Of a stretch of 32,000 bases of DNA, positions 4,057 through 28,934 are shown piece by piece. Where the stretch lies: NCBI RefSeq assembly GCF_000010625.1, contig NC_010296.1, forward strand, positions 5,550,001 through 5,582,000, given 5' to 3'. The notes below the pieces were generated by a model. It worked only from the letters and a program-made list of their open reading frames with translations. It searched no databases and was not told where the DNA came from. The translations under genes and the position numbers were made by a program. Each line of letters opens with the position of its first letter. Positions within the stretch are counted from its first letter, which is position 1. Origin of the DNA: Microcystis aeruginosa NIES-843. GTDB lineage: Bacteria; Cyanobacteriota; Cyanobacteriia; Cyanobacteriales; Microcystaceae.

Positions 4057-4077
4057 CAACTCAAATATAAATGCTAT

Positions 4078-6147: not shown

Positions 6148-6208
6148 CCGATGAGAGACGGGTCAAAAAACAACGTTAAACTATTACACCAACTTAGCTA
6201 CCCAAAAA

Positions 6209-7378
6209 ATGAATCAAACCCTGGTTAATCAACAACAGTTGTTCCAAGAAATCGTCCAAGATATCGAGCAAAATAAAATTGCAATCGCGGCGAAAAAACT
6301 CCGTCAACAGGAAGCAGATAGCTGTGAAGTTCCGGCTCAGTGGCTCTGGAAAACAGCAGCGGCTTTAGAAACCAACGACTGGAGCATTTTATCAGAAGAT
6401 TTCATTAATCTGAATTTTATCGGCAAAAATGGTTATTTTCTGATGATTGCTCCCTATCGCATCAATCGTCAGGGAGAACGACAACTCACGTTGAGTGCAA
6501 TTTACGGAAAAATTCACCAAAATAGTCAACCTTCTATCGAACAACTAGAAAGCTTGACTCGTGAAAAATTTGGCAGTCTAAGACAACCGATTCCCAGAAA
6601 TTTATCCTTTACTGAAATTGCTAGTTGCGGCACGGTTAAAGGTGAAAAGGGGGAGGCTTTTATCGTTCCCCATAGGTGGACTTTTCCCAATAGTGTTCAG
6701 GGACCAGCTTTAAATAATGCCAGTGAGCAAAAAAGACGCTTTTCCGGTTCTAGCTATGAATGTATCCGAAAAATTTTTGAGCCAGAAACGGCCGATTTGC
6801 TATTAGGACCCCTGGAGGATCAAATTAATGGTGAACGCTATCGTCATCTCGATACCCAATTCCATGAAGCGGGTCATGCTAGTGGGTTGGGATTTGACTT
6901 AAAACTCAAAAATAAACTGTTTCAAAACTATACCTATGCCGGAGTCGAGGAGTGGCGCTCAGATAGTTTAGGCTTTGAATTTGCCGATTGTGCTTTACCT
7001 GCCGAAGAAGCGGGAAAATTAGTCGCTGTTAATTTCTGCATTCGCTTTGGTTTAGATGCTCACCGTTTAGGGGGTTTAGAAAAAGATGTGGATGTCCACG
7101 CTAGTTTGATCAGTTTGGAATATCTCTTGCAAAATGATGCCATTTATCTCACAAAAAATGGTCAATTGTCTCTGCGTAATGTCAGTTATCCAGGCTTACT
7201 AAAAGCGGTGGAAATGCACCGAACAAAAGCCTTATCTCTAACGCGAAGGGAGTTAAATCTAAATAGTCCAACAGGTCTTTTTGCTCTGTATAAAGTAGAG
7301 ATTCATCCCGCAACCCAATTAATTTTTCAGGGACTAATTGTAGAGCGCTGCCGAGGAATTTGGTTAGAGTTACAATAA
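6209..7378 (+). CDS. Hypothetical protein with HExxH...E (gluzincin-like) metallopeptidase signature
   Basis: 389-aa ORF starting 61 bp after the ABC transporter. It contains the motif FHEAGHASG followed by GVEEWRSD about 25 residues later. I recognise no family. Confidence 0.7.
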   Translation: MNQTLVNQQQLFQEIVQDIEQNKIAIAAKKLRQQEADSCEVPAQWLWKTAAALETNDWSILSEDFINLNFIGKNGYFLMIAPYRINRQGERQLTLSAIYGKIHQNSQPSIEQLESLTREKFGSLRQPIPRNLSFTEIASCGTVKGEKGEAFIVPHRWTFPNSVQGPALNNASEQKRRFSGSSYECIRKIFEPETADLLLGPLEDQINGERYRHLDTQFHEAGHASGLGFDLKLKNKLFQNYTYAGVEEWRSDSLGFEFADCALPAEEAGKLVAVNFCIRFGLDAHRLGGLEKDVDVHASLISLEYLLQNDAIYLTKNGQLSLRNVSYPGLLKAVEMHRTKALSLTRRELNLNSPTGLFALYKVEIHPATQLIFQGLIVERCRGIWLELQ

Positions 7379-7408
7379 GTACCTAGGGTTTGCTGTTAAC
7401 CGGCCCGG

Positions 7409-7441
7409 GGAGGGATGTCCATCAGCCATGAGCATCCCTCC
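7409..7441 (+). terminator. Stem-loop downstream of the 6209-7378 ORF (possible terminator, no U-tract)
   Basis: GGAGGGATG (7409-7417) and CATCCCTCC (7433-7441) form a perfect 9-bp stem with a 15-nt loop. It starts 31 nt after the stop codon. No T-run follows. Confidence 0.3.
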
Positions 7442-7576
7442 AAAGCCTATTGATGGCGATAGGGATTGGGGTCAACTCCTCTGAGTTTCTCGCCACAGCA
7501 AGTGCCGGCTCTGGAATATTAGTCGTTGACTCCTAAGTAGCTGTTTGCAATTAAATAGAAGATAGGTTTTGCACTC

Positions 7577-7626
7577 GATCCCCCCTGCCCCCCTTAATAA
7601 GGGGGGTGCCGACAGGCGGGGGGATC
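7577..7626. repeat. Nested G/C-rich palindromic element
   Basis: The inner palindrome CCCCCCTTAaTAAGGGGGG is perfect. The outer arms GATCCCCCCTGCC / GGCGGGGGGATC are nearly complementary. Confidence 0.5.
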
Positions 7627-7792
7627 TTAGAGTTTTTTACGCCCATCTACTTACACATTTATTTATATATATCGCTAGATAACTAAAATGTGTTAAGCTA
7701 GGCGGTAGCATTCTGGGAAATCACGACAGATAGATCAGTCTCTTATTCGTCAGAATCCCTGAACCCCTGATTACCTCTTTCTCCCCCGGTCG

Positions 7793-9817: not shown

Positions 9818-9868
9818 CCTTGCTTTAGAATTAAACTAATCCTTCGCTAGAAATTTGAGGTGATTTTT

Positions 9869-10354
9869 ATGGAACTCGATAACATTATCAAAAAAGTGGC
9901 AGGTACTTATTTAGCTTCGGCTATTATTGCTGTCATCGTGCTAATTCTGACCCTCGGACAACCCTTTGTAGTTTTTCTGGGTATTGGAGCGATGGGGTTG
10001 GTTACTGTGCTAGGAGATGCGATTGCTCAGTACGGAATTGAAGCGGTTCTGAATGCTTTTTACACTGAGCGAAGTAAAAAAGAATCCCTGGAAACACTTT
10101 TGGCTGAAATTGATGCTTTACCTCTGACTGATGACCTGAAATTAAAAACCAAAAAACACTTGACTGACCATCAAGAACAGACAGTAAAGCAGCAAGAAAC
10201 GGTAACTGAGCCAACTCCTGAAAGTCCTCAAACAGTTGTTATTGAAAATGAACCAGTTATTGAAAATGAACCAGTTATTGAAAATGAACCAGTTATTGAA
10301 AATGAACCAGTTATTGAAAATGAACCGGTTGTTGTTGAAGTTGAAAATGTTTAA
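9869..10354 (+). CDS. Small membrane protein (two predicted TM helices) with a charged tail ending in an (IENEPV)5 repeat
   Basis: The ATG at 9869 is preceded by GAGG at 9857-9860; the track start at 9860 is a GTG. The hydrophobic stretches are YLASAIIAVIVLILTL and FVVFLGIGAMGLVTVLG. It starts 51 bp after the DUF2235 gene. Confidence 0.7.
   Translation: MELDNIIKKVAGTYLASAIIAVIVLILTLGQPFVVFLGIGAMGLVTVLGDAIAQYGIEAVLNAFYTERSKKESLETLLAEIDALPLTDDLKLKTKKHLTDHQEQTVKQQETVTEPTPESPQTVVIENEPVIENEPVIENEPVIENEPVIENEPVVVEVENV
10241..10330 (+). repeat. Tandem repeat, 18 bp x 5 (ATTGAAAATGAACCAGTT), in frame
   Basis: Four identical units plus one unit with a single A>G change. They encode IENEPV x5. Confidence 0.95.
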
Positions 10355-10438: not shown

Positions 10439-12127
10439 ATGCTAAATAGGAACTCTCAACATCTGATGACCTATAAAAAAATTGCCATTTATGAGCAAAG
10501 CTATCAACTTCCTGTTTTTAAAAATAGATACTTAAAAAATTTTCAGAAAATCATCAAGGAACGTCGGAAATTAATTCAAGAAGGAGTTCGCTACCATTAC
10601 TATTTTGGTAAGATTATTAAACGAAAAGAAAAAATTACTCAACAAGAAATCTTGATCGAGACTCAGTTATTAATTAAAGACTATAATTTATTAATTAATG
10701 GACTAGAAATCTATCAAGACGGATATTATCGTTTTTTACTCCAACTCAGTGACAATCTCAAAATTTTATTTTCCCAAAAATATCAAGAATTGAAAATCTT
10801 AGACTACGAGAGAATAAAGTTAGAAATTAAAAATAATAATAATCAAAATATTCTCAATCAACTCAAGCTAGAAAAACAGGAAAATTTTCGGGCAATTTTG
10901 CTACTGGGAAAAACATCTTTTTTGATGTTGAGAAAAACTAAATTACTAGGGGAAGGAGTTCAGAAATTAGCCGAGGATACTCAAAAGCAGAAAAAAATTG
11001 TGCAAGCAATTATTCAAGAACTCAAAATTTATGAGGAATTAAATCATTATCAACTCAAATCTCAACGAGTTCGCCAAGAAATTGCGGATCTTGCCCAAAA
11101 TGCGATTAATTTTGAAAACTACTTACAGGACTATTTTGCTCCTTTTCAATTATTAATAGAAGAAGTGATTAAGGTGGATGAAGAATTTTATGCAACAGTT
11201 GGAGAAATTAAGTATTTGGTAGATAATATTTTTCCGCCTCAGCCTGCTCTCTTAGAAACGTCAGATTCAGCCATAAATTCTGAGTTTTTGCTAAATTTTA
11301 TGGCGACTGGTTACGAGAAAGAAGCAAGGTTAAAAGAGGCTTTTTCCTCGGATCAATTTAATGATTACTTATTCAATGAAAGTGAATGGTCAGAACAATT
11401 TATTTCCCTAGAAAAAACCATCAATAAATTATCTCATCATTTAGCAGAACAAGAGGCTTGTCAAAAAGACACTATCCCCAAAACTCCCCTAGCAATAGTT
11501 GTCTCTCAATTCACTCAAAACAATATTCACAAATCTTCTACTTCTAAAAATCCCCAGACTTCCCCAAATATCTTAACTCAAGAATCGGCTGATATTGATT
11601 ATAATCAATTACAAGATTTGCTAAGAAAGCAACAGTGGCAAGCGGCCGATCGCCAAACAACCAAGCTACTATTGAAAATCTTGCGTAAGACCTACTGGAA
11701 TGAGGTTTATCCTCAAGATATTGCTCAATTACCTTGTTCGGATCTGAAAAAAATTGATCAACTTTGGCTTCATTATAGTCATGGTCATTTCGGTTTTAGT
11801 ATTCAGCAAGCCATTTTCTCTAGTCTCGGTGGTTTAGTGGATTATGAAACCCAAAAGAAACTTGGCGATCGCCTAGGTTGGCGGAAGGAAGGTCAATGGC
11901 TCAATTATGAGCAACTAAACTTTGAATTAGAGCCGAATTCTCCCCTCGGTCATTTACCCGTTCATTGGTTGATTTTTGAAGAAAATCTTTGTTACCCATC
12001 TGCGGAAGCTTCTGACAATCAAAACTCCCTGGCTTTCTGGAGAGTTGGCAATTGGTTATTGTGGCAACTTCACCTCGTTTTAAGCAAAATTCAAGCCTGT
12101 GGAATTATTCCTCTGTCTGACTTTTAA
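10439..12127 (+). CDS. Coiled-coil protein with C-terminal GUN4 (porphyrin-binding) domain
   Basis: The C-terminus reads QQWQAADRQTTKLLL...LPCSDLKKIDQLWLHYSHGHFGFSIQQAIFSSLGG...LGDRLGWRKEGQWLNYEQLNF...PLGHLP, which matches the GUN4 core. The N-terminal ~350 aa are K/E/Q/L-rich and likely coiled coil. Confidence 0.85.
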   Translation: MLNRNSQHLMTYKKIAIYEQSYQLPVFKNRYLKNFQKIIKERRKLIQEGVRYHYYFGKIIKRKEKITQQEILIETQLLIKDYNLLINGLEIYQDGYYRFLLQLSDNLKILFSQKYQELKILDYERIKLEIKNNNNQNILNQLKLEKQENFRAILLLGKTSFLMLRKTKLLGEGVQKLAEDTQKQKKIVQAIIQELKIYEELNHYQLKSQRVRQEIADLAQNAINFENYLQDYFAPFQLLIEEVIKVDEEFYATVGEIKYLVDNIFPPQPALLETSDSAINSEFLLNFMATGYEKEARLKEAFSSDQFNDYLFNESEWSEQFISLEKTINKLSHHLAEQEACQKDTIPKTPLAIVVSQFTQNNIHKSSTSKNPQTSPNILTQESADIDYNQLQDLLRKQQWQAADRQTTKLLLKILRKTYWNEVYPQDIAQLPCSDLKKIDQLWLHYSHGHFGFSIQQAIFSSLGGLVDYETQKKLGDRLGWRKEGQWLNYEQLNFELEPNSPLGHLPVHWLIFEENLCYPSAEASDNQNSLAFWRVGNWLLWQLHLVLSKIQACGIIPLSDF

Positions 12128-13415: not shown

Positions 13416-13424
13416 TGCTAGAAT
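13416..13424 (+). promoter_or_regulatory. Candidate extended -10 promoter (TGcTAGAAT) for tnpB copy 2
   Basis: Same motif and same 7-nt spacing to the ATG (13432) as in copy 1. Confidence 0.35.
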
Positions 13425-13431
13425 GCGGGAT

Positions 13432-14613
13432 ATGGAAAAAGCCTATTCGTTTCGATTTTACCCCACACCAACACAAGAGTCGCTATTGCGGCGCACTTTG
13501 GGCTGTGTAAGATTAGTTTACAACAAAGCTCTCCACGAACGAACACAAGCTTGGTACGAAAAGCAAGAAAGAGTAGGCTACGCTCAAACTTCTTCAATGT
13601 TGACTGAGTGGAAAAAACAAGAAGAATTAGACTTTTTAAACGAAGTAAGCTGTGTACCTTTACAACAAGGGTTAAGACACCTACAAACAGCTTTTACTAA
13701 TTTCTTTGCTGGTCGTACTAAGTATCCTAACTTTAAGAAAAAACATCAAGGAGGAAGTGCCGAATTTACCAAATCTGCTTTTAAATTCAAAGACAAACAA
13801 ATCTATTTAGCTAAATGCACAGAACCCTTACCTATTCGATGGTCAAGACAAATACCAGAAAGCTGTGAACCAAGCACAGTAACAGTCAGATTACATCCTT
13901 CTGGACGTTGGCATATTTCAATAAGATTTGATGACCCAACAATCCAGCCATTACCCCCAACCGATAAAGCCATCGGAATTGACTTAGGAATTAGTAGCCT
14001 CGTGATTACCAGCGATGGAGACAAGGTATCTAATCCTAAGCATTTTAAGAAACATTATCGGAGACTGCGAAAGGCCCAAAAAAGTCTTTCTCGAAAACAG
14101 AAAGGCTCAAAAAATCGGGAAAAAGCGAGAATCAAAGTAGCAAGGATTCACGCTCAAATTACTGATAGTAGAAAAGACCATTTACATAAGCTAACCACTC
14201 AATTAGTTCGTGAAAACCAAACGATTGTGGTTGAGAATTTAGCCGTCAAGAATATGGTCAAAAACCCGAAATTATCTCAGGCAATATCTGATGTAAGCTG
14301 GGGAGAAATCACTCGACAATTAGCCTATAAATGCCGTTGGTATGGGAGAAACTACATCGAAATAGATAGATGGTTTCCTAGCTCTAAAAGGTGTAGTAAT
14401 TGCGGGTATATTGCTGAGAAAATGCCGTTAAATGTTCGAGAATGGGACTGTCCAGACTGTGGGACACACCATGACCGAGATATTAACGCGAGTAAAAATA
14501 TTTTGGCCGCAGGGCTTGCGGTGTCAGTCTGTAGAGCGACCATAAGACCAGAACAGAGTAAATCTGTTAAGGCAGGTGCGAAAAATCCTTCGGGACCCCA
14601 AGCAGAAACCTAA
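13432..14613 (+). CDS. tnpB: TnpB (IS605 OrfB family RNA-guided nuclease), copy 2
   Basis: Start chosen at the MEKAYSF ATG that is homologous to copy 1; the track ORF starts 3 codons earlier at 13423. RuvC and Zn-finger motifs are intact. By hand I count 13 substitutions versus copy 1 over the shared 383 residues, followed by a different C-terminal tail. Confidence 0.93.
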   Translation: MEKAYSFRFYPTPTQESLLRRTLGCVRLVYNKALHERTQAWYEKQERVGYAQTSSMLTEWKKQEELDFLNEVSCVPLQQGLRHLQTAFTNFFAGRTKYPNFKKKHQGGSAEFTKSAFKFKDKQIYLAKCTEPLPIRWSRQIPESCEPSTVTVRLHPSGRWHISIRFDDPTIQPLPPTDKAIGIDLGISSLVITSDGDKVSNPKHFKKHYRRLRKAQKSLSRKQKGSKNREKARIKVARIHAQITDSRKDHLHKLTTQLVRENQTIVVENLAVKNMVKNPKLSQAISDVSWGEITRQLAYKCRWYGRNYIEIDRWFPSSKRCSNCGYIAEKMPLNVREWDCPDCGTHHDRDINASKNILAAGLAVSVCRATIRPEQSKSVKAGAKNPSGPQAET

Positions 14614-15595: not shown

Positions 15596-16298
15596 TTATT
15601 CAGCCCTTCCCGACGTCGGGGGGCAAGAGGGGGTCAAACGGTTTAATCTTTTTTCTGCCTGGCGATAGTATTGCGGTATCTCTACCGTTTCCCCATCACT
15701 GTTAGCGTAGAAAACTTTTAAACCTACATCCAATCCCACACATCTTTTAGTCGGCTCTAACGGTTTCGCATATTCCCGAATATCAACGCTAAGACAGAAT
15801 TGGACATAGTAACCGTCTGCTCGTTTAACAATCCTAACTCGTTTAATTTGGTCTATAGGGTAAAAGTTTAGGTCTCTGGTTCCTTTCAGTTTAACCGTGC
15901 CAATATTTTTCTTATCTGTGAAAGTTATTTTCTTTCTATCCTCCGATAGTTGACCTCCACAGTTTTTATATTCCACAGAACGATTATTCTTTTGGAATTT
16001 AGGATAACCTTTTTTACCTTTAACCTTTTTCTTACAATTGTCATAGAAACGAGGAATAGCCGACCATGCTCGTTCAGCAGATGCTTGTCTAGCAGTAGAA
16101 TTTACAGTATCGACAAACTTGAACTGTTTGGCGAGAACAATATTTATTGAGAGAATATTTATCTACTTTATCCTCTTGTTTGGCATCCATCCAAAGCCTT
16201 AAAGCCTTATTTCTGATGAATTGTACTGTACGAATAGCTTCATCTATGGCAGAACACTGACTTGGTTTGACCACGGCTTTCATTTCTAAGACAATCAT
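15596..16298 (-). pseudogene. Truncated, frameshifted TnpB (IS605 OrfB family, a different lineage from the two intact copies); left-end remnant extends to about 16465
   Basis: The N-terminal piece is MIVLEMKAVVKPSQCSAIDEAIRTVQFIRNKALRLW. After a frameshift it continues ...GYPKFQKNNRSVEYKNCGG...CVGLDVGLKVFYANSDGE...RQAEKRLNRL and then ends. RuvC-II/III and the Zn finger are missing. A hairpin GTCGGGGT...ACCCCGAC at about 16413-16459 looks like a left-end structure. Confidence 0.8.
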
Positions 16299-16994: not shown

Positions 16995-17209
16995 CCTCGT
17001 CGTGGGGGATTGATCCCCCATCTTGCCGAGCGTGTGCGAGTTTTGGCAAAGTCGAGAGATTATCGATTTTGGCAAGCGATAGGATAGTCAATGGCCCGAT
17101 CGATGCGCTTCAACACGACAAATTAGGCATTCTGTCAAGAGAAATTAACAAATTTAAATATTTCTCGACCTAATCGATTCTCGAAAAAATTTACCGGAGG
17201 AAATGAACG

Positions 17210-19579
17210 ATGTCCCAAGATAAGCCGATTCAACGCCAAATTCTACCGATTCCCGACTTAACCCCCTTCGGTCTAACCACCTACGACGCGAAGAATCCGG
17301 ACACTGACTATCCCCCGATTCGAGATATCCGACCGCCGGCCGGCGCGCCCAACGTGCTGATCGTGCTGCTCGATGACGTGGGCTTCGGAGCCTCCAGTGC
17401 CTTCGGTGGCCCGTGCAATACCCCCACTTTCGAGCGATTAGCGGCACAGGGGCTAAAATATACCCGTTTTCATACCACTGCCCTCTGCTCTCCCAGCCGC
17501 GCGGCTTTGCTCTCTGGAAGGAATCATCACTCGGTCGGCATGGGCAACATCACCGAAACCGCCACCTCCGCCCCCGGGCAGAGTTCCGTTCGTCCCAACA
17601 CCAAAGCACCCCTCGCCTTGACCCTGAAGCTGAACGGCTATTCCACGGCGCAGTTCGGTAAGTGCCACGAGGTACCGGTTTGGCAAACCAGCCCGATCGG
17701 CCCGTTTGACGCTTGGCCCTCTGGCGGGGGTGGATTCGAGTATTTCTACGGCTTTATCGGTGGCGAGAATAACCAGTGGGAGCCGGCACTGTACGAGGGA
17801 ACAACCCCGATCGAACCGCCGAAAACCCCGGAGGAAGGGTATCACCTGACCGAAGATCTGGCTGATCGAGCGATCGCTTGGGTCAGTCAACAAAAAGCCC
17901 TCGCCCCCGATAAGCCTTTCTTTATGTACTTCGCCCCCGGCGCGACCCATGCCCCCCACCACGTCCCCAAGGAATGGATCGACAAGTATCGGGGCCAATT
18001 CGCTCACGGTTGGGATCACCAGAGGGAGATTACCTTTGCCCGACAGAAAGAACTGGACGTAATTCCCCAAAATGCCGAACTCACCCCCCGTCACGCCGAA
18101 ATTCCCGCCTGGGATGACATGGATGATCGCCTGAAGCCGGTATTAGAGCGCCAGATGGAGGTGTACGCCGCCTTTCTGGAACATACCGATGAGCAGGTGG
18201 GACGGGTGATTCAAGCCTTAGAAAATCTAGAAATCCTCGACGATACGCTCGTTTACGTCATCATCGGCGATAACGGCGCATCCGCCGAGGGAACGCTTCA
18301 GGGCGCGTTTAACGAGATGGCCAACTTTAACGGGTTAGCGGGTCTAGAAACCCCGGAATTTCTCCTCTCGAAACTGGATGACTTCGGCGCGCCCGATTCC
18401 TATAATCACTACGCGGTCGGTTGGGCTTGGGCGATGAGTAGCCCCTACAAATGGACGAAGCAGGTCGCTTCTCACTGGGGCGGGACCCGCAACGGTACGA
18501 TTGTTCGTTATCCCAAAATCATCACGGAAAAAGGTGGGATTCGCCATCAGTTCTGTCATCTGATCGATGTGGCCCCGACGGTGTTGGCAGTAGCGGGAAT
18601 TCCCGAACCGACTATGGTTAACGGTGTCCTACAAAGTCCCTACGAGGGTACGAATATGGTTTATACCTTTAACGACGCGGCCGCCCCCGAACGTCACGAT
18701 GTGCAGTATTTCGAGATGTTTGGCAATCGGGGCATCTATTACAAGGGTTGGAGTGCGATTACCAAGCACCGCACCCCGTGGATTATGACTGGACAGACGA
18801 TGGTTCCTTTCGACGATGATATCTGGGAACTATACGACGGCAGTACGGATGGGACGCAAGCTCGGGATCTCTCCCGGGAAATGCCAGAGAAACTGCACGA
18901 ACTACAGCGACAATTTCTGATCGAGGCGGTTAAGTATAATGTACTGCCCCTAGACGATCGCCAAGTGGAACGGGTCGATCCCGCCACCGCTGGCCGGCCT
19001 ACCCTCGTGCGGGGAAACTCGCAATTATTCTTTGCCGGGATGGGGCGTTTGTCTGAAAATAGCGTCATCAACATCAAAAATAAATCCTTCTCGGTGACGG
19101 CGGAACTGAACATTCCCCCGGAAGGCGCGGACGGGGTGATTATCGCCCAAGGCGGCCGCTTCGGTGGTTGGAGTGTCTATACCCACGACGGAAAAGCCAA
19201 GTTCGTCTATAACGTGCTGGGGATTCAAAGTTTTGTCACCGAGGCGACGGAGACGATCCCGGCCGGTAAGCATCAGGTACGGATGGAGTTTGCCTACGAT
19301 GGCGGTGGTTTAGGACGGGGGGGAAATGTCACCCTCTACTACGACGGTCAACTGGTGGGTACGGGTCGGGTAGAACGAACTCAGGCTTTTATTTTCTCTG
19401 CGGACGAGACCACGGATATCGGCTACGAATCCGGTACCCCCGTAGCGGCGGAATATACCTCGAAAACCAGTCGTTTCACCGGCAAGATCGGTTGGGTTCA
19501 ACTGGATGTGGGTACGGACGCTCATGACCACCTGATCGACCAGGAGGAACGTCTGAAAATTATCATGGCCCGGCAGTAG
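17210..19579 (+). CDS. Arylsulfatase (type I, formylglycine-dependent sulfatase family, large AtsA-like form)
   Basis: 789-aa ORF. Motifs are LIVLLDDVGFG and the CxPxR formylglycine motif LCSPSRAALLSGRNHH (Cys codon at 17486-17488). The gene is GC-rich. Confidence 0.93.
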   Translation: MSQDKPIQRQILPIPDLTPFGLTTYDAKNPDTDYPPIRDIRPPAGAPNVLIVLLDDVGFGASSAFGGPCNTPTFERLAAQGLKYTRFHTTALCSPSRAALLSGRNHHSVGMGNITETATSAPGQSSVRPNTKAPLALTLKLNGYSTAQFGKCHEVPVWQTSPIGPFDAWPSGGGGFEYFYGFIGGENNQWEPALYEGTTPIEPPKTPEEGYHLTEDLADRAIAWVSQQKALAPDKPFFMYFAPGATHAPHHVPKEWIDKYRGQFAHGWDHQREITFARQKELDVIPQNAELTPRHAEIPAWDDMDDRLKPVLERQMEVYAAFLEHTDEQVGRVIQALENLEILDDTLVYVIIGDNGASAEGTLQGAFNEMANFNGLAGLETPEFLLSKLDDFGAPDSYNHYAVGWAWAMSSPYKWTKQVASHWGGTRNGTIVRYPKIITEKGGIRHQFCHLIDVAPTVLAVAGIPEPTMVNGVLQSPYEGTNMVYTFNDAAAPERHDVQYFEMFGNRGIYYKGWSAITKHRTPWIMTGQTMVPFDDDIWELYDGSTDGTQARDLSREMPEKLHELQRQFLIEAVKYNVLPLDDRQVERVDPATAGRPTLVRGNSQLFFAGMGRLSENSVINIKNKSFSVTAELNIPPEGADGVIIAQGGRFGGWSVYTHDGKAKFVYNVLGIQSFVTEATETIPAGKHQVRMEFAYDGGGLGRGGNVTLYYDGQLVGTGRVERTQAFIFSADETTDIGYESGTPVAAEYTSKTSRFTGKIGWVQLDVGTDAHDHLIDQEERLKIIMARQ

Positions 19580-19696
19580 AAAAGGGGACTTGCGATCGAC
19601 GGTTTCGCTTATTCGGTCTTAGGGGAGGAATCGCGATCGCTGGCGAGCCAATGTTTAATAGATCTCCTGCAAAAATCAAAAATTGTCGTAGTTAGT

Positions 19697-20046: not shown

Positions 20047-20738
20047 GTGCGGGTTAGTAATAACCTTAGTCCTGTCCTCTAGATGCCTAGAGTGACGGCA
20101 TTTCCTGCTGCTTTAGACTTGGTACATCTGAGGTAGTGAGCGAGGAAAAAAAAGCGGTATCTGATAGCCTAAATCAGAAACCCGTTGAGCCAGAACCTAT
20201 GGATAGCCCTGGGGCGAAGATACGAATTAACCATCGTCAACACCCACGAGCCAAAAGGCTGACAGGCTCGAAACAAAAGTTAACAGAGTTGGGGCTGATA
20301 GCTCATACCACTATCAGTAAGGCATTCCCGTTACTCTGTTGTGGACAGTATCATCCTAAGGGTTCAACCAATGGTTATAGGGAACGAAGTAACCCTGATT
20401 GACTCTGCCCGTTCGGGGCAGTAGGAAACCATCCGCAAGTCAATAGAGGGAGAGGATGTCCTTAAAAGCCAAGGCTTTGAGTAATATCAAAGATATGCTG
20501 ACAAAGGACGGGTAACTAGGAAGTCTAAGCAACAATCAACGGTCATATACGCCCTAAAACCAACAATCTTGTCTGGTGGGGATACAGCCAAGAGGGTTGA
20601 ATAGACAAGGAAATAATAATTCCCATTATTATTCTACTAATGACAGTAGCCTAGTTACTCAGGAGCCGGATACGGCGAAAGTCGTAAGTCCGGTTTTGAA
20701 GCAGGGGGTGGGAAGGCGACTTCCTGCTCTACTGTAAC
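20047..20738 (+). mobile_element. ORF-less group II intron (ribozyme only, no reverse-transcriptase/maturase ORF)
   Basis: The 5' end GTGCG at 20047 fits the GUGYG consensus. A canonical 34-nt domain V lies at 20663-20696, GAGCCGGAUACGGCGAAAGUCGUAAGUCCGGUUU, with the AGC triad, a GAAA tetraloop and a 2-nt bulge. It aligns position for position with the ai5gamma and Ll.LtrB domain V. A short domain-VI-like hairpin follows. The 3' end is uncertain, at 20732 (..CTAC) or 20738 (..TAAC). The domain IV region is too short for an IEP. Confidence 0.75.
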
Positions 20739-22396: not shown

Positions 22397-23413
22397 CTAA
22401 AGATTCGACAGATTGAAACCACGTTTTAAAGGATAAATGCCCGGTGGCAACCAAAATCCTTCTGTGTAGCCTTCTTTCTCCTGCATATAAACATGATCAA
22501 AGAAATGGAGGTTTTCAGCATGAAGGTCTTTGATTTGCCATTTAGGCCCGTTTATTCCAGTTTCGTGTTTACCCTGTTGATCGTCCCAAAGATTCTCTGG
22601 GTTAGGAAACTGAGTCCTTTTTGCTCCATCTTTGGTAATGAAATAAATGTGACCTGATTCATTCGATTTATCCTTATTTTTTCGAGGCCATCTTGCTCCT
22701 ATTGCCCCACGAGGTGCTAGGTAATCTTCTTTCAAAAAGTAGAGAAATCCCAGACGACGCAGTTTTTTCTCAACGCCTGTAACTCGAACATTATCCATTA
22801 AACAAGGGTCTTGGAAAAGTGCTTTGACGGTGGCTAATCCTAACTTTTCAGCCAGATATTTCATCACACAGGAGACAGAATAAGCGCAGGGTGCGTCATC
22901 AATATGGTATTGATCTTTGTTTTGTTCAACTAATTCGTTTAGTTTGTTTCGACCTTCCTCCGTTGCTTCCATAAAGGTTTCTTTGGACTGAAGAATGGGC
23001 AGGATTCCTTGTTCAAATAACCGGCACCCTTCGGCATCAGTTAACCTGTGATCTGTCGGCAGAGACTTGGTGTGTTTAAGCTTTTTGTAATCATCTAAAA
23101 CCAGACCCCCATAAATAGTTTTAGTATAATCTGAGGAATCTGCCACATAAATTATAATGCTGGTTTCTTCTTCATGATTAGCTTGATCATAGCCAAAGGC
23201 AGTAATTTTGCGCTTCCCAGGATTCGTGAATCCTGAATAAGTAATCGACCAAGAACCGTCTGCTTTAACCTGATTATTGCCTAGGGAATATTTGTCATCT
23301 GCTGTGAGTTCTACAGTGACTATTCCAGAATTTACTTTGCCTGTAAAAGTAACAGGTTTTAGACGTTCAAAGCGAGCATCATTGATGGGACTAATAATTT
23401 GTAGGGAAGTCAT
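22397..23413 (-). CDS. Ig-like N-terminal domain fused to a papain-fold Cys-His domain (Tae4/NlpC-P60/CHAP-like putative peptidoglycan amidase)
   Basis: 338-aa ORF with AGGAGA upstream of the ATG. The N-terminal ~90 aa form a beta-sandwich-like region (ISPINDARF...VTFTGKV...ITAFGYD). A candidate catalytic Cys lies in DAPCAYSVSCVMKYL and a candidate His in ESGHIYFITKDG. The family assignment rests on motif resemblance only. Confidence 0.6.
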   Translation of the reverse strand: MTSLQIISPINDARFERLKPVTFTGKVNSGIVTVELTADDKYSLGNNQVKADGSWSITYSGFTNPGKRKITAFGYDQANHEEETSIIIYVADSSDYTKTIYGGLVLDDYKKLKHTKSLPTDHRLTDAEGCRLFEQGILPILQSKETFMEATEEGRNKLNELVEQNKDQYHIDDAPCAYSVSCVMKYLAEKLGLATVKALFQDPCLMDNVRVTGVEKKLRRLGFLYFLKEDYLAPRGAIGARWPRKNKDKSNESGHIYFITKDGAKRTQFPNPENLWDDQQGKHETGINGPKWQIKDLHAENLHFFDHVYMQEKEGYTEGFWLPPGIYPLKRGFNLSNL

Positions 23414-23449
23414 GGCATTTCTCCTATGGGATTGTTGAAAAATTTACTG

Positions 23450-25126
23450 TTAGACGAATTGATCGCCCAATGAAGGATTAAAAGCGATCGCTTCAAGATC
23501 AGTACGATAGATACCAACTTTATGAATTTCCTCTGGTAATCTTGGCCAGATGTGGACTTCACTCTCAAAAGTGCGCCAAAGTTGGGGAGTAATTCGGAAG
23601 ACTCGGTTATTAACACTGGAAAGTCCTGCAAAATGTTCTTGCATTCTGACATTAACGTGCCGATTTAAGACCTCAAAGACTTTTTTGACCGTAGCAGGAT
23701 TATCATATCCGTCGTAATGATTGAAAGTGATTCCTGTTTGATTTTTTAGCTGATTACAGAAGCTTTTAGGTTCTTCGAGTCGTTGAACTTCTTTATAGCC
23801 ATTAGCAAAAACATCATGAGCAATGGCTTCTAAATAAAGTTGTCTTTGAGCGGCGGGATTTTTAGCGTAGAAAAGAATTTTTGCCACCGCCAAAGTTGAG
23901 CCAACACAATTGCCAAATGTTCCCCAACTACCGAAGGCCAATAAATCATCATAAGGTAACACAGAAGTGACATTCCAAGCCCCATTAAAAAGTCGGCCAT
24001 CAATGATGACTAATTTAGCGCGTTGCTCAGAAGAATAGTTCTTGTATTTAGCCAGAAAATGCTCATCTAACTTCGCTTGTTCCCTGTCGTCTTTCTGATA
24101 ATCATTAATACTACCATTTTGACGACGAGTTAAAATAGCTACCTCGAAATCCCAGTCAGTTTCTGATTCTTCTAACCCAACTGCTGGTAATTTTTCAGTC
24201 ACAAGTTCTCTGGGTGGTCGTCGCCCGTCGTACCACATTTCAGTCTCCTTATTAGAGATGCGGACACGCACTTTAGTTTTAGGAAGAGTTTGAGCGATTC
24301 CCATTGCTACTAATTCATCTGCTCCCCAAGTAATTGGCTGTTTGAGAGCCGAGAGATTATACTTATCCAGAAGATTGTATAATCTTGTTTGCATTGTTTC
24401 TCGCACATCTTTGGATGAATGTTTTTGAGAATCTCCCATCGCACAAACCACCGCTGAGATTTTTCGATTCATCGACTGTAATAGACGGATAGATTGTTCG
24501 AGTCTCCACAACTCTTTGTCGTGTCTTTTTTTTGCCCAATCTGGATAAGGAGTTGGATCCGGTTGAGGAGGACCGACACCAACAAAAGATTGGACGATGA
24601 CCGCTTTTTCAAATTGAGAAATAGTGGGGAGATAATCTTCGGGATATTGTAGCAATCGTTCTGCAATAATGAACGCTGTATCCTTGACCCGAAGCAGTGT
24701 AATCATTTGTCTGACTAAAGAATCTGTTTGTCTTCTCGGACTAAGAACGTACACAGGACAAATTCTTTCTGAACGGTTGTCTTGTCCATTAGGGGGAATC
24801 CCCACTCCATCTCCATCTTGTTCTGTTGGTCGATGATACACCTTAAATTGAGACTGCTTAATGTCTTGTAATATCTTGGCCACAGGGTCATTACTTTTAA
24901 TTTCGACATGGGGAATATAAGCGAACCATTTCGCTATCTCATTAACAGGGGTTGTTAATTCTAATTCCCAGTGATTATTGTCCGCAGATTTGTAATCATT
25001 AATCTCAATTTTATCTCCTGCTGTCAAGGAAAATTTTTGAGTAAGATCAGTAATTTGACTGCTATCTAGGGTAGATTGTTTGATAACAGTATTGACTAGA
25101 GCTTTCAGTTTTTGGGTAGTCATCAT
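23450..25126 (-). CDS. Large hypothetical protein (about 558 aa), unknown function
   Basis: Start is moved to the ATG at 25126, which is preceded by AAAGGAG. The track start at 25210 is a TTG that overlaps the upstream stop. The C-terminal third has ...IIDGRLFNGAWNV...LAFGSWGTFGNCVGSTLA..., which is reminiscent of DUF4127-type proteins, but I cannot verify that. Confidence 0.7.
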   Translation of the reverse strand: MMTTQKLKALVNTVIKQSTLDSSQITDLTQKFSLTAGDKIEINDYKSADNNHWELELTTPVNEIAKWFAYIPHVEIKSNDPVAKILQDIKQSQFKVYHRPTEQDGDGVGIPPNGQDNRSERICPVYVLSPRRQTDSLVRQMITLLRVKDTAFIIAERLLQYPEDYLPTISQFEKAVIVQSFVGVGPPQPDPTPYPDWAKKRHDKELWRLEQSIRLLQSMNRKISAVVCAMGDSQKHSSKDVRETMQTRLYNLLDKYNLSALKQPITWGADELVAMGIAQTLPKTKVRVRISNKETEMWYDGRRPPRELVTEKLPAVGLEESETDWDFEVAILTRRQNGSINDYQKDDREQAKLDEHFLAKYKNYSSEQRAKLVIIDGRLFNGAWNVTSVLPYDDLLAFGSWGTFGNCVGSTLAVAKILFYAKNPAAQRQLYLEAIAHDVFANGYKEVQRLEEPKSFCNQLKNQTGITFNHYDGYDNPATVKKVFEVLNRHVNVRMQEHFAGLSSVNNRVFRITPQLWRTFESEVHIWPRLPEEIHKVGIYRTDLEAIAFNPSLGDQFV

Positions 25127-25206
25127 TTTTTCTCCTTTTTTGCCTGATTCTGGACAGGTTACGTTAACAACAGCAGACGGTTCACAAATAGGATATTTTC
25201 CCTTTG

Positions 25207-25674
25207 TCAAGTTAAGGAAGTTACAGTGAGTTGGATGCTATCTCGATTATTAGCATAGGCGATGATCACATCGTTAGCAAAGCAGTAAAGCCGTCCTGTT
25301 TTTGGTGCTGTAAACTGTTTATTTGTGCCAATGAGGAACAAACTATCTTGATCTTTATCAATTGAACCAATCAGTGAAAACCAAGGTGAATTAGGCATTC
25401 GTCGTAGTCTTTCACATAGTTTCAGAAAGAAATTAGTACTTTCATAACCATCAGCATTAGAGGTAATTGTCCAGTCTGTCCATTGACCTGTTGCTTGAAA
25501 ATGATATTCTTGTCCAGCGACAAGATTAATTCCTGTATCGTTCCAGATTAGTTTTGAGTCTATGGTTATAGGGAGATTTGTGTTTTGCATTACCTGTTGT
25601 AAGGCTGATGCCAGTAAAAGTTTGTACATTGTTCGTGAGTAAATCACCGAATCAAAAAAGAGTAGGGTGATCAC
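25207..25674 (-). CDS. PA-IL/LecA-like beta-sandwich lectin-domain protein
   Basis: The pattern WNDTGINLVAGQEYHFQATGQW...FSLIGSI...FLIGTN...TGRLYCFANDVIIAYANNRDSIQLTV parallels the P. aeruginosa LecA layout (AAGW...GALVMKIG...ITLIYND...YGNNSGSFSV). The start is uncertain: GTG at 25674, or ATG at 25629 (MYKLLLASAL). Confidence 0.6.
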   Translation of the reverse strand: MITLLFFDSVIYSRTMYKLLLASALQQVMQNTNLPITIDSKLIWNDTGINLVAGQEYHFQATGQWTDWTITSNADGYESTNFFLKLCERLRRMPNSPWFSLIGSIDKDQDSLFLIGTNKQFTAPKTGRLYCFANDVIIAYANNRDSIQLTVTSLT

Positions 25675-25710
25675 TATGAAAGATCATTATGATCACCCTT
25701 GAGTGAGTTA

Positions 25711-27225
25711 TTATTGAGGTTGAGGACAAGTTCCTAGGCCCCAATCTACATATAGATCATGGGGATTAGTATCTCGTAGCCAACTAACTAATTTTTTGTA
25801 GTCAGCAATATCGTAGATACCAAGGCAACCTGCCGTTCCTGGACAGGGACCATCACAATATTTTCCATTCCAATCAATATGGATTTCAATAGCACTTCGC
25901 CGTGTGGAATTCGGTCCGACATATTTGATAGGGGTAGTCACTGGACCCAGACCATTACTAAAAACAGTCGGTCCATATTTATCTTTGCCACCTGCCCAGA
26001 GAATGTCATTAATGTACCATTTGCCTTCAGGCAGCGGTTCCATGGAACCCGATACACTTTGAGGACCTGTACGGAATAGTTGTTTACTCCGTTGTCCAGA
26101 GCAAACTTTAAGATGATCTTTTACCTGTCCATTCTTGATATATTCCAAAATGAGAATATATAAACCATCACCGTCTTTCTGGTTAGTTTTAGTCAGTCGG
26201 AGATAAGTTCCTTCAGCAGGTTGAGGAGTAGGTGTGGGTGTTGTTTCTTCTCCCCACAATTTAGCCCAAGTTTTTGGTCCGACTTTCCCATCTGCTTCGG
26301 AGTGACCAAAAACGTCAGCTTGGAATTTTCTGACCGCCTCATCCGTGCCACTGCCAAAGATACCATCCAATTCTTTCTGGTAATAGCCTAAATCTTTTAA
26401 GCGTTCCTGCATTTCTCGGATGTCATAACCGGGGGCATCTTCATCACTCATGCCTTTCAGTAACAGTCCTCGATTTAATTGAGGTGGATTTTCCACTAGA
26501 GAAAGTGTCTGATTACGACCTGCGAATACAATTTGTGTAGCTTGCGGAATAGGACTCCCAGGTTCGGCAAGATGAAAATTCCGAGCATTGGGATATTGTT
26601 GCAACAGATCGATCAAATCATCTTTAAGATGGGTTTCTAGTTTAACAACCTCTACCACTTGTTGATCATTGTAGGCAACAACTACTGTATTTCCCCCATC
26701 TAAATATCCTTTCAACCAAGTTACAGAATGTTCAGGAGAGACTTCAAGCTCAATAGGAGTTCCAAAACTATCATTTTTACGGAATAAAGCTTCCTCATCT
26801 TTACGGCGATTGGTTAACCCCTCAAGCACAACTTGTACTCCGTTAACTGTTGCTTTATTCCAACGTTTAAATTCATTGGCAGCCCCCTCATAATCCTTCT
26901 CATTCAGTTTACGTCGTAAGGTACTTTCTTTAAAAGCTCCGATGCCTACGTTATAAGCAAAGGAAACTAAAGCGTCAAACTGATTTTGATGAAGATCAAC
27001 ATTTACTAATTCATCTACAGCTTTGGCTTTTTCCTCACATTCATTGACAAGGAAGCCTTCCGCCTGTTGATCAGTAATCTTATCCCCTTCCCGAACACGT
27101 CGTCCATCAGGATAACAAGTTGTTCCAATCCCAATTGTCCAAACGCCAGCAGGACATTTATAAGCGGTAAGCTTACAACCTTCCCACTTTTTGATCAGAT
27201 CAATACAGTTCTGTGATACTTTCAT
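25711..27225 (-). CDS. GH24 phage-type lysozyme + PG_binding_1 + C-terminal YkuD/Tlde1-like (L,D-transpeptidase-fold) domain fusion
   Basis: AGGAGG lies upstream of the ATG. The GH24 region is KKWEGCKLTAYKCPAGVWTIGIG (E-x8-C-x5-T variant of the catalytic triad) ...QFDALVSFAYNVG...NRRKDEEALF. PG_binding_1 is MQERLKDLGYYQKELDGIFGSGTDEAVRKFQ...DGKVGPKTWAKLW. The C-terminal region is EGKWYI...RSAIEIHIDWNGKYCDGPCPGTAGCLGI (H-x17-TxGC). Confidence 0.85.
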   Translation of the reverse strand: MKVSQNCIDLIKKWEGCKLTAYKCPAGVWTIGIGTTCYPDGRRVREGDKITDQQAEGFLVNECEEKAKAVDELVNVDLHQNQFDALVSFAYNVGIGAFKESTLRRKLNEKDYEGAANEFKRWNKATVNGVQVVLEGLTNRRKDEEALFRKNDSFGTPIELEVSPEHSVTWLKGYLDGGNTVVVAYNDQQVVEVVKLETHLKDDLIDLLQQYPNARNFHLAEPGSPIPQATQIVFAGRNQTLSLVENPPQLNRGLLLKGMSDEDAPGYDIREMQERLKDLGYYQKELDGIFGSGTDEAVRKFQADVFGHSEADGKVGPKTWAKLWGEETTPTPTPQPAEGTYLRLTKTNQKDGDGLYILILEYIKNGQVKDHLKVCSGQRSKQLFRTGPQSVSGSMEPLPEGKWYINDILWAGGKDKYGPTVFSNGLGPVTTPIKYVGPNSTRRSAIEIHIDWNGKYCDGPCPGTAGCLGIYDIADYKKLVSWLRDTNPHDLYVDWGLGTCPQPQ

Positions 27226-27304
27226 GGCAAATCCTCCTAATTATGTCAGATTATGAGTGTTTATGTAAGTAAAGTGAAGGCGACATTTTTGAGGCAGCGA
27301 AGTG

Positions 27305-28414
27305 CTAAACAGAGACTATTTCTTTCTTTCTCAAAGCACCAAGCTCTTGCTCAAGCATCATTTGAATTTCGGGAATAGCGGGTTTATAAGGGGGATTAAC
27401 ATTCAGGTCTGTCCAGCGATTTTTAACACTTTCATGCAAATTGCTAACATCCCCTTCAAATTGGCGAGGTGCTGTTCCCGCTACATTAAATGGCCATTTT
27501 GACGTATTATCAAAATACGCACTACAATTGGGATGAACTCCATGTTGAATATAACTTTTATCTAAGGCCAAACCCAAGGCTTCGACTTGTTCCATCATCC
27601 ACAATAAAGCCCCATCGGATAGGCCAGATTCTTCCTGAGAACCTCCACCAACACAACCATGACCCCCCGGAAACCAAACTTGAACCACCTGTTCTTTTTG
27701 TTGTCTGATCTGGGTAGAATGGGGACGCATTAGCGTTACATCAAAGACCTTACGAATTTCATCAATAGCAACTGCATGAAACGCCTTTTCAATTGTGGGA
27801 TTGATGGTCGAATCATAAAAGCGATAACGTTCGTTGAACTTTTCATCTAAATGCAGAGAATGAACGATATCGGGGATACCTAAAGAAGCAACCGTATCCC
27901 AACAGCATAAGGCTTTAATGGGAACCCGTCGTCCATACTTATTACGGAAATCAATGGCATTTTTACCGTTAGGTGCGTTATTTGGGTCTTGTTTGTCTCG
28001 GTAAATTTCGTAGGCTTTGGGAATTTGTCGGATAAATTCTCGATACAACAAACCACAATTATAAATTAACCCAGCTAAACAGCGTACAGTGTAAGCTCCC
28101 CGACTAAACCCAAAGAGATAAATTTCATCTTCAGGTTGATAGTTTAAGCACAGAAAACGATAGGCATCCTCAATCTTATGATCCATGCCAATGCCTAAAG
28201 CACCTCCAGCAATTTTAATTAAAGTATCAGTTACCTCGGCATTAGATTGTTTTGTCCCAATCCCTTCGTCATAGTAGATGATTTGACGGATGGGGTTGCC
28301 CTTACTATCATCAAGTGGTGTGATAGCTTGCACCATTTTGACAACATTGGTAGGATAACCTTGTCCTAAATCTTGCCAAGTTCCATCACAACAAACAATA
28401 AGACGGCTTTTCAT
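27305..28414 (-). CDS. DUF2235 alpha/beta hydrolase (T6SS Tle1 phospholipase-like fold), stand-alone
   Basis: AGGAGG lies 9 nt upstream of the ATG. Motifs are LIVCCDGTWQD...YPTNV, YYDEGIGT, GFSRGA, CCWDTVASLGIPD, HAVAIDEIR and PGGHGCVGG. It is a paralog of the C-terminal domain of the 7793-9817 product. Confidence 0.9.
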   Translation of the reverse strand: MKSRLIVCCDGTWQDLGQGYPTNVVKMVQAITPLDDSKGNPIRQIIYYDEGIGTKQSNAEVTDTLIKIAGGALGIGMDHKIEDAYRFLCLNYQPEDEIYLFGFSRGAYTVRCLAGLIYNCGLLYREFIRQIPKAYEIYRDKQDPNNAPNGKNAIDFRNKYGRRVPIKALCCWDTVASLGIPDIVHSLHLDEKFNERYRFYDSTINPTIEKAFHAVAIDEIRKVFDVTLMRPHSTQIRQQKEQVVQVWFPGGHGCVGGGSQEESGLSDGALLWMMEQVEALGLALDKSYIQHGVHPNCSAYFDNTSKWPFNVAGTAPRQFEGDVSNLHESVKNRWTDLNVNPPYKPAIPEIQMMLEQELGALRKKEIVSV

Positions 28415-28934
28415 AGCGATGAACCTCCTAGGTTTCTTAAAACTCGCCAGTTTACGGAATCTTTGAGAATTCTAGTGAATCATGACTCAAAATTATTGAG
28501 ATTTTCCTTGAGGTAAAAGTACTGCAAGACTCAACCGAGACAAAGGAAGTTCTAACTCTGTTCGGAAGTGATATAGATGAGTTAGATAGCCAGCTTGACT
28601 AGGTAAAATTAGGTGCGGTACTTATACTCACTACTCTAGATCGTCTATCAGAATTTACTGCCCTAAGGATTGCAAATTAACATATTTCTTTAGATTTATG
28701 TATATAAGTTTACAGAATATTGTTGAGCTATTTATTAATAAAAAAAGTTGAGTTTGATTGAAAACCATCTTAACACCTAAGCCCGCCAACCTGAACTTTA
28801 GCTGATTCTCGATCGCAATTTTAGCCCACCCTAGCACTGCGCTCTTTTCCTACAAGGATTTTTACTAAGAAAAATGATCTGTCTGCCTGAGAACAGGCTA
28901 TAGTGATCATCAAACCCTCAGTGAAAAACTTCCC

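Follow-up and report, generated by a model that had tools for sequence, protein, structure and literature searches.

A hypervariable array of leaderless peptidoglycan hydrolases and lipases in Microcystis, a candidate antibacterial lytic arsenal

We analyzed a 32,000-nt stretch of the Microcystis aeruginosa NIES-843 genome (NC_010296.1, positions 5,550,001-5,582,000; the window) for the nature of five intact open reading frames (ORFs) that lie together on its minus strand at 22397-28414. Labeled A to E in their order of transcription, these genes encode a Tle1-like lipase, a cyanophage-endolysin-like enzyme, a lectin-like protein, a DUF4127 protein and a protein that joins an Ig-like domain to a Cys/His domain. 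The genes occupy a hypervariable site at which the content of an array of lytic enzymes changes from strain to strain behind one conserved leader, and the window carries one allele of it. The observations that carry this account are the gene content and its modularity, hypervariability at a fixed site, a readable deletion history, selection on the genes and a lack of phage or secretion genes nearby. We tentatively interpret the array as a polymorphic antibacterial lytic arsenal.

Related loci were gathered from GTDB species representatives and from metagenomes, using as the anchor a 238-aa membrane protein encoded divergently from the array. All ORFs were called and clustered across loci with simple custom scripts, and cluster representatives were annotated with Pfam. 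About 39 Microcystis loci were obtained, a few of which represent the same metagenome-assembled genome in two collections, and some contigs truncate their arrays. At least 14 distinct same-strand gene orders occur among them at a single site, downstream of cysK, the gene for the 238-aa membrane protein and a conserved leader of ~420 nt; the order A-B-C-D-E was found in the window only. The site is flanked by core genes, with cysK on one side and, in loci L010 and L025, glpX/hemA on the other. By blastn, synteny breaks at ~28540, where the variable array starts. An earlier note made from the window sequence had proposed a five-gene block and looked to its synteny in relatives; with at least 14 arrays in ~39 loci, such synteny was not found.

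The leader is the constant part of the locus. Its majority identity is 90-100% across 38 Microcystis loci (NIES-298 and MC19 are in the alignment), and in conservation this non-coding stretch equals or exceeds the coding flanks; in some loci it contains insertions. No Rfam match to the leader was obtained, even at E <= 5, and we rejected a riboswitch or other known RNA on that basis. The cyanobacterial LexA-box pattern was absent from the leader and showed no excess over chance in the window as a whole, and SOS regulation was rejected because the leader did not match the pattern.

Behind the leader, the arrays show a loose grammar. The first gene is A in 25 of the 39 loci and a 227-aa protein in 13; a patatin gene heads locus L007. 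The 227-aa protein has a weak match to the YaeF permuted-papain family (E = 0.024). The arrays often end in gene D, mostly with E after it. For the genes in between, strains draw on a pool of some 20 kinds of peptidoglycan hydrolases and lipases, modular in build and leaderless. Architectures in this pool include GH24 + PG_binding, Ig + GH25, PG_binding + GH19, Ig + GH75, and glucosaminidase + Amidase_3 + SH3. Others are Amidase_3, Amidase_2 + metalloprotease, Ig + Amidase_2, CHAP + PG_binding, SH3 + CHAP, M23 + three SH3 + SLT, M15, LysM + Hydrolase_2, an M8-like protease and patatin. The cassettes reach 767 aa with three SH3 domains, and no signal peptide was found in any of the pool enzymes. 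As a set they cover each major peptidoglycan bond as well as lipids, often through fusions to PG_binding_1, SH3_3, LysM or Ig modules.

The same modules recur with different catalytic partners. At least five catalytic domains, among them GH25, GH75, Amidase_2 and an SLT-like domain, are found joined to the Ig module of E, and the module of 77 aa at the N-terminus of D is joined to DUF4127, Peptidase_C39_2, M8-like or E-type domains. Among the homologues of E, some differ in the N-terminus and others keep the Ig module but have another C-terminus; P0107-P0120 share the Ig module alone (70-76% identity). Gene E is the most divergent of the five genes between alleles. Its variability clusters at residues 151-175, 201-210, 241-250 and 271-280, beside the putative catalytic residues Cys176 and His255.

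Interspersed among the enzymes are partner genes whose products carry a signal peptide or lipobox (clusters 6, 28, 31, 33, 107, 111, 154 and 168) or a single transmembrane segment (clusters 81 and 52). In fuller alleles, B is followed either by the signal-peptide gene SP-208 and TM-302, a single-transmembrane protein with a large C-terminal domain, or by lipoprotein-383; SP-351 precedes D, and a CHAP gene is followed by a DUF6636 signal-peptide gene.

The window allele arose by deletion from an array of seven genes, the order of which (A, B, SP-208, TM-302, C, D, E) is seen in three metagenomic loci (L038, L039 and L044). Relative to these, the window and M. aeruginosa LEGE 91341 (L017) have an identical 1,606-bp deletion, which took the SP-208 gene from codon 11 on, the entire TM-302 gene and the strong ribosome-binding site of C. 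The junction lies at 25598/25599, within the C ORF. The 140-aa ORF is a deletion chimera in which codons 1-10 come, in frame, from the signal peptide of the lost 208-aa gene; the native start of C is the ATG at 25590, giving a protein of 127 aa. Of the 351-aa signal-peptide gene (cluster 6), which lies directly 5' of the DUF4127 gene D wherever it is present, the window retains a remnant of 59 bp. The earlier observation that no small immunity-like ORF adjoins the five genes is correct for the window allele and does not hold in fuller alleles, where signal-peptide, lipoprotein and transmembrane genes lie at the deletion sites. Because of the 1,606-bp deletion and the 59-bp remnant, this absence is a secondary trait of the window allele.

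The array genes are under purifying selection. In comparisons with other alleles, A, B and D gave ratios of nonsynonymous to synonymous polymorphism (pN/pS) of 0.15-0.25, E gave 0.3-0.5 and C gave 0.34-0.83; the upper part of the range of C (0.57-0.83) came from alleles in which C is shorter or truncated.

Table 1. Features of the array and its leader (positions in the window)
Feature	Position	Strand	Description
Leader/promoter region	28415-28934	-	Between the divergent 238-aa gene and the first array gene; conserved at ~28540-28934
Gene A	27305-28414	-	369 aa; leaderless DUF2235/Tle1-like alpha/beta-hydrolase
Gene B	25711-27225	-	504 aa; cyanophage-endolysin-like enzyme
Gene B, GH24 muramidase domain	~26794-27192	-	Pfam Phage_lysozyme, 5.5e-47
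Gene B, PG_binding_1	~26257-26430	-	Pfam, 1.4e-15
Gene B, YkuD-like C-terminal domain	~25771-26148	-	Weak Pfam YkuD match, 1.2e-3, below cut-off
Stem-loop (25664-25699) and U-tract (25653-25660)	25653-25699	-	Between B and C; possible terminator/attenuator
Gene C	25207-25629	-	140-aa ORF; predicted PA-IL/LecA-like beta-sandwich protein
Remnant of 351-aa signal-peptide gene (cluster 6)	25144-25202	-	59 bp; blastn 90% identity to gene interior in L001 and L007
Gene D	23450-25126	-	558 aa, ATG start; 77-aa N-terminal module + DUF4127
Gene D, 77-aa N-terminal module	~24896-25126	-	Common to other catalytic domains
Gene D, DUF4127 domain	~23624-24541	-	Pfam PF13552, 3e-13
Gene E	22397-23413	-	338 aa; Ig-like domain + Cys/His domain
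Gene E, Ig-like N-terminal domain	~23138-23413	-	AlphaFold model + Foldseek; 92 residues, Ig/fn3-like
Gene E, C-terminal domain	~22409-23131	-	240 residues; conserved Cys176, His255 and Asp262

The layout of the five genes agrees with its earlier description. All genes except C have a GGAG-type Shine-Dalgarno site in front, the gaps from A to E measure 79, 81, 80 and 36 bp, and a simple hydropathy scan found no N-terminal hydrophobic segment in any of the five, in keeping with the absence of Sec- or Tat-like N-termini. Between B and C lies a hairpin with a predicted RNA folding energy of -24.2 kcal/mol (z = -4.7; none of 200 shuffled sequences was as stable), which a consensus terminator scan skipped owing to its loop limit of 3-8 nt. 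This hairpin could attenuate transcription within the presumed operon, and for that reason we regard co-transcription of all five genes, as judged from the sequence, as no more than plausible.

Gene A matches the Pfam family T6SS_Tle1-like_cat (PF09994) at 2.6e-84 over profile positions 2-287 of 287, and a GFSRG motif of the GxSxG nucleophile type is readable in its sequence, bearing out the DUF2235/Tle1-like lipase assignment that had been made from the sequence. A is 96-98% identical across strains, with pN/pS of ~0.17, and behaves as a semi-constant head of the array: the gene that follows it may be B, a GH75, GH25 or CHAP gene, SP-198, or none. No constant downstream partner of A that could serve as a Tli1-type periplasmic immunity protein was found across arrays. 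Neither the scanned window ORFs nor the annotated related loci link A to a type VI secretion system (T6SS) through vgrG, hcp, PAAR or an adaptor. A thus has the catalytic domain of the Tle1 effector class and lacks its T6SS linkage and its immunity gene.

The window holds a second leaderless DUF2235/Tle1-like protein at 7793-9817 (+), which matches the family at 3.9e-75, is 40% identical to A and carries an N-terminal Laminin_G_3 domain. It is followed by the gene of a 164-aa protein with two transmembrane segments (9860-10354) and preceded by genes of a DUF6014 protein (6209-7378) and an ABC_membrane_2-type ABC transporter (3955-6147). The region 3955-10354 may be a second lipase locus.

Gene B appears to be a domesticated cyanophage-type endolysin. 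It matches endolysin families in PHROGs and is the sole one of the five proteins with a match there. Residues 1-502 align with annotated endolysins of Nodularia siphoviruses and of cyanophage S-2L in a phage collection, and when aligned pairwise, B and the endolysin of Nodularia phage vB_NspS-kac65v151 (YP_009844680) are 41% identical end to end, with an extra PG_binding_1 insert in the middle of B. The GH24 and PG-binding parts of the composition read earlier from the sequence are secure in Pfam; the YkuD-like domain has a weak match only. About 20 of 70 relatives of this C-terminal domain do carry PF03734 and are named L,D-transpeptidase family proteins in their sources, and the sequence of B itself contains an IEIHID...GTAGCLG motif. 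The further suggestion that this domain makes B a Tlde1-like effector did not hold: the Tlde1 model PF10908 did not match B at E <= 0.1, and B has no T6SS context of the Tlde1-Tldi1 type. Because B is homologous end to end to a phage endolysin, we take its muramidase and YkuD-like domains together as a cyanophage endolysin architecture, judged by homology, and a reading as a Tlde1 effector is not needed.

Gene C gave no Pfam match. It belongs to a large family of ~125-aa domains (1,528 representative clusters), four of 24 homologues match PF07828 (PA-IL) with a best value of 2.9e-5, and a profile of the family found only PllA (E = 0.023) and LecA (E = 0.3) in the PDB. The label LecA-like, also part of the earlier account, is plausible from these family matches and denotes a distant relationship.

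Gene D had been described as a protein of ~560 aa without a family. Pfam places a DUF4127 domain in it, behind the 77-aa module. Relatives of this domain are repeatedly fused to the wall-binding modules PG_binding_1, SH3_3 and Cu_amine_oxidN1. With about 35 invariant columns, mostly polar, DUF4127 looks like what would be expected of a wall-acting enzyme family without characterised members. Searches of the PDB with phmmer and with profiles gave no indication of its fold or activity; D had no match in the phage collection, the neighborhoods of stand-alone DUF4127 genes in other taxa were uninformative, and a literature search on DUF4127 returned zero papers. A profile search with the 77-aa module found no PDB match. 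The impression from its sequence that it might be an SH3b domain was supported by neither Pfam nor this PDB search.

Gene E shows only weak Ig-domain matches in Pfam, and Foldseek comparison of an AlphaFold model supports the Ig-like N-terminus. In its C-terminal domain, Cys176 is nearly invariant among 22 homologues and invariant in an alignment of 14 C-terminal sequences; in both sets, His255 and Asp262 never vary. The model places Cys176 at the start of a helix (176-191) and His255 just before a strand (256-258); model confidence (predicted local distance difference test, pLDDT) is low at 262-314. The earlier note had seen here a Tae4/NlpC-like Cys-His amidase, of which the Cys-His pair is retained and the family assignment is not. 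Fourteen family members had no Pfam match at E <= 10, phmmer and profile searches of the PDB found no match, and with two AlphaFold models Foldseek returned insignificant matches in the PDB and BFVD, the best being a C39 peptidase (E = 0.61, probability 0.11). Comparison with CHAP, C39_2 and DUF2272 proteins by hhalign gave probabilities <1%. A Tae4, NlpC/P60, CHAP or C39 identity for E is thus unsupported by every sequence, profile and fold search, and of the three T6SS effector families first proposed among these genes (Tle1, Tlde1 and Tae4) the Tle1-like assignment alone stands.

The window scan covered one ORF of 88 aa and most of those with 90 aa or more, with ORFs overlapping longer ones and most small ORFs set aside. 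Apart from the array, the scanned ORFs encode TnpB transposases, the ABC transporter, the DUF6014 protein, the LamG-Tle1-like protein, GUN4, SIMPL, sulfatase and cysK products or proteins without a family. As had been noted, none of them belongs to the Hcp, VgrG, PAAR, sheath, holin or phage structural families, and there are no capsid, tail, terminase or integrase genes among them. T6SS, contractile injection system (CIS), holin and phage structural genes were equally absent from the related loci whose neighbors were annotated. Full-text literature searches found no description of the locus and nothing on Microcystis together with Tle1, DUF2235, extracellular CIS or polymorphic toxins.

Arrays of this kind were also seen in other settings. 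Gloeothece verrucosa (CP002198; L004 7285-10924) has a mini-array outside Microcystis with three enzymes, in the order WD40-like protein (192 aa), Ig with an alternative C-terminus (334 aa), 77-aa module + Peptidase_C39_2 (271 aa) and 77-aa module + E-type domain (307 aa); its WD40-like gene also occurs 5' of E in Microcystis L007. Three metagenomic contigs (L012-L014) hold a D homologue of 81% identity in another array. The array genes of L012 run from patatin through a 34-aa ORF, DUF4127 and Peptidase_M15_4 to a truncated Big_7 gene; an unannotated 617-aa gene replaces patatin in L013, and L014 is cut off upstream. On all three contigs a Tn3 transposase breaks the array, beside a 2,642-aa SpvB/TcdB/RHS toxin gene. 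Decay is visible within Microcystis: NIES-298 has a split D (L001 8291-9964), L018 and L026 have D in fragments, L039 and L044 have a truncated or split C, and MC19 has a disrupted DUF2272 gene.

Several other features of the window lie outside the array. The 562-aa protein at 10439-12127 (+) has a C-terminal GUN4 domain, and the PADLOC model PD-T4-6 matches the same region (8e-36). At 20661-20738 (+) there is a group II intron catalytic domain (Rfam RF00029, 55 bits against a gathering score of 40), with no obvious ORF for an intron-encoded protein adjoining. An island of 55-56% G+C against a background of ~40% at 17000-19600, which holds a 789-aa sulfatase + LamG protein (17210-19579), suggests recent horizontal acquisition. 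Two full-length TnpB/IS605 OrfB genes, each with helix-turn-helix, OrfB_IS605 and Cas12f1-like TNB domains, and one fragment lie at 2811-3998, 13423-14613 and 15596-15976. The side of the array 3' of E, toward lower window coordinates, is a plasticity zone, unlike the glpX/hemA flank of other strains.

Three roles had been put forward for the five genes from the sequence: a weapon delivered by an unknown route, cargo for a CIS encoded elsewhere, and a self-lysis module. All three are live hypotheses. In the polymorphic arsenal that we tentatively favor, the array enzymes would destroy the envelopes of other bacteria, whether rival Microcystis strains, associated heterotrophs or both. Membrane attack and binding would be the part of the lipase, lectin, Ig, 77-aa, PG_binding, SH3 and LysM modules, and the signal-peptide and lipoprotein partners of the fuller alleles may give periplasmic protection or act as accessory factors. 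Lysis of a producing subpopulation, as with colicins, would be the simplest route of release, with an unrecognised export pathway as the alternative; the head lipase A and the phage-type endolysin B could themselves execute the lysis of the producer. Antagonism seems a likely use because the locus combines hypervariability, domain swapping, variability adjacent to the putative active-site residues, coverage of peptidoglycan bonds and lipids, and enzyme-partner adjacencies. By analogy, these five traits may be read as marks of a conflict system, as known from T6SS effector islands, protein bacteriocins and polymorphic toxins.

Functionally, the array most resembles the auxiliary effector-immunity clusters of T6SSs and the loci of cell-wall-targeting protein bacteriocins. 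With the former (Tle1/Tli1, Tae/Tai, Tge/Tgi and Tlde1/Tldi1) it shares leaderless lipases and peptidoglycan hydrolases, the DUF2235 domain in A, signal-peptide and lipoprotein genes beside some enzymes in fuller alleles, and strain-variable content at a fixed site. Unlike those clusters, it has no T6SS genes or marker and adaptor domains, A is without a constant partner, partnerless enzymes persist, many of its enzymes carry endolysin-like wall-binding modules, and the Tae4 and Tlde1 models do not match. To our knowledge, no T6SS is known in cyanobacteria. Bacteriocins such as pesticin and the colicin M family, and the pneumococcal blp locus, offer a parallel in their leaderless modular toxins with swappable killing domains, their periplasmic immunity, their release by producer lysis and their cassette-like strain variability (in part, PMC5821083). 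Unlike colicin-type operons, the array has no recognisable lysis gene for a bacteriocin release protein (no small lipoprotein gene of this type is present in the window array), no TonB box and no LexA box. It also holds many enzymes per operon, as opposed to one toxin-immunity pair, and its immunity candidates are often missing.

Two further comparisons are partial. The endolysins of vB_NspS-kac65v151 and S-2L share with B the GH24 domain, the linker and the YkuD-like domain end to end, and they too are leaderless; B differs from them by its PG_binding_1 insert, its chromosomal place between core genes, its membership of a multi-enzyme array and the absence of holin or virion genes nearby. Like polymorphic toxin systems, in the description of which DUF2235 was listed as Tox-AB hydrolase1 (Zhang et al. 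2012; PMC3482391), the array combines conserved N-terminal modules with alternative C-terminal enzymatic domains and bears recombination scars. Unlike them, it shows no trafficking domain (RHS, PAAR, WXG, LXG or filamentous haemagglutinin) in Pfam scans, it is directed at envelopes instead of nucleic acids, and immunity genes are not reliably downstream: there are none in the window, and in relatives their placement is inconsistent, sometimes upstream, and they are often deleted. Of the defining traits of polymorphic toxins, the array therefore has module swapping and has neither the trafficking domain nor the downstream immunity gene.

A number of points weigh against an antibacterial arsenal, above all in its strict effector-immunity form. 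Enzymes without a signal-peptide partner are common (the window, L017 and many D genes without cluster 6), and within the locus no partner gene was ever met in the absence of its enzyme; classical effector-immunity systems have the reverse pattern. The identity of B stays at ~95-97% whichever partner gene comes next, on which ground we rejected an allele-specific pairing of B with its partners. DUF2272, the domain of at least one of the signal-peptide partners, is classed as a papain-like enzyme (PMC10318531). The weak point is the release route: no export route, holin or injection machinery is present in the window or in the annotated related loci, none is apparent in the rest, and a peptidoglycan hydrolase set free outside the cell would still have to get past the outer membrane of Gram-negative bacteria by some means. 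Antibacterial use, immunity and release are, moreover, all read from sequence.

The same facts give the main rival, a self-lysis module, its strength, and we consider it somewhat unlikely but serious. Under that proposal, altruistic autolysis, programmed cell death or abortive infection would begin with induction of the head lipase, which would breach the cytoplasmic membrane from within as a holin substitute and let the leaderless endolysins degrade the cell's own wall; the outcome would be the death of an infected or stressed cell, or the release of its contents. B is a full-length homologue of cyanophage endolysins, and all of the enzymes are without signal peptides, as phage endolysins are. 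A lipase-like or candidate lipid-acting protein heads nearly every array (A in 25 of 39, patatin in L007 and the 227-aa alternative), and partnerless alleles persist with intact genes, so that immunity is not needed. What weakens effector-immunity (partnerless enzymes, no orphan partners, the identity of B and DUF2272) counts for self-lysis as well. The secreted and single-transmembrane proteins encoded after B in fuller alleles might recall an antiholin/holin pair, but neither has a homologue in the phage collection, and we rejected that identification; the window allele has in any case lost these putative holin-like genes with B still intact. Nor does self-lysis obviously need some 20 interchangeable hydrolases, wall-, lectin- and Ig-binding modules or variability adjacent to putative active sites, and the leader has no LexA box. 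No PADLOC defence model matches any of A to E, on which basis a known anti-phage defence system was also rejected.

Delivery by a distant CIS or another contact-dependent machine, which would make the array a cyanobacterial equivalent of a T6SS auxiliary cluster, seems improbable to us. CISs do exist in cyanobacteria (PMC8894136). The Tle1-like family of A also fits such a role, and leaderless periplasm-acting enzymes next to signal-peptide partners in a polymorphic array at a fixed site resemble T6SS effector islands. However, no Hcp, VgrG, PAAR, DUF4157, MIX or adaptor domain was found in the scanned array proteins, the related loci with annotated neighbors contain no CIS gene, and alleles with effectors but no immunity genes persist. 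Cargo loaded into a tube is not typically of the kind seen in many cassettes, namely large wall-binding enzymes of several domains (up to 767 aa, with three SH3 domains).

Housekeeping wall remodelling or recycling, or an ordinary prophage lysis cassette, is very improbable: hydrolases with PG-binding modules also serve growth and division and B matches phage endolysin families, but the array varies in content among strains of one genus, with pseudogenes and deletions, its enzymes have no signal peptides to reach the wall, and it lies between core genes in a window whose scanned ORFs include no capsid, tail, terminase, integrase or holin gene; we reject both readings. A prophage lysis cassette, which the earlier note had held out as a finding that would count against its proposal, was rejected also because only B has a match in PHROGs, D has none in the phage collection, and A, D and E have none on IMG/VR contigs. 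A plasmid origin was rejected as well, as PLSDB contained no megablast match to the 6-kb block.

If the array is an antibacterial arsenal, what is new is a polymorphic arsenal of lytic enzymes in an organism and a genetic format without an earlier description. In a bolder version that we judge unlikely, Microcystis and relatives such as Gloeothece would possess a system for killing other bacteria that has so far gone unrecognised and works without any known secretion machine. It could work in a kamikaze manner, with the head lipase and endolysin opening the producer and freeing a strain-specific cocktail of wall-binding hydrolases, or through a new trafficking route for which the Ig-like and 77-aa N-terminal modules would be the address tags. 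In either case, DUF4127 and the Cys/His domain of the E type would be new families of envelope-degrading enzymes, and which strains succeed one another in toxic blooms, and with which microbiome, would depend in part on the array type.

Microcystis is a toxic freshwater bloom former whose strain dynamics and associated bacterial community are poorly explained. Because almost all of the sampled strains have their own combination from the ~20 kinds of wall and membrane hydrolases behind one conserved control region, the array is a strong candidate determinant of antagonism between strains, or between the cyanobacterium and heterotrophs, or of regulated lysis in bloom collapse. For secretion biology, enzymes of T6SS and endolysin types in an organism not known to have a T6SS pose an open problem. 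The array also places the DUF4127 family and the C-terminal domain family of E in a concrete functional context, and its enzymes are candidate cyanobacteria-active lysins.

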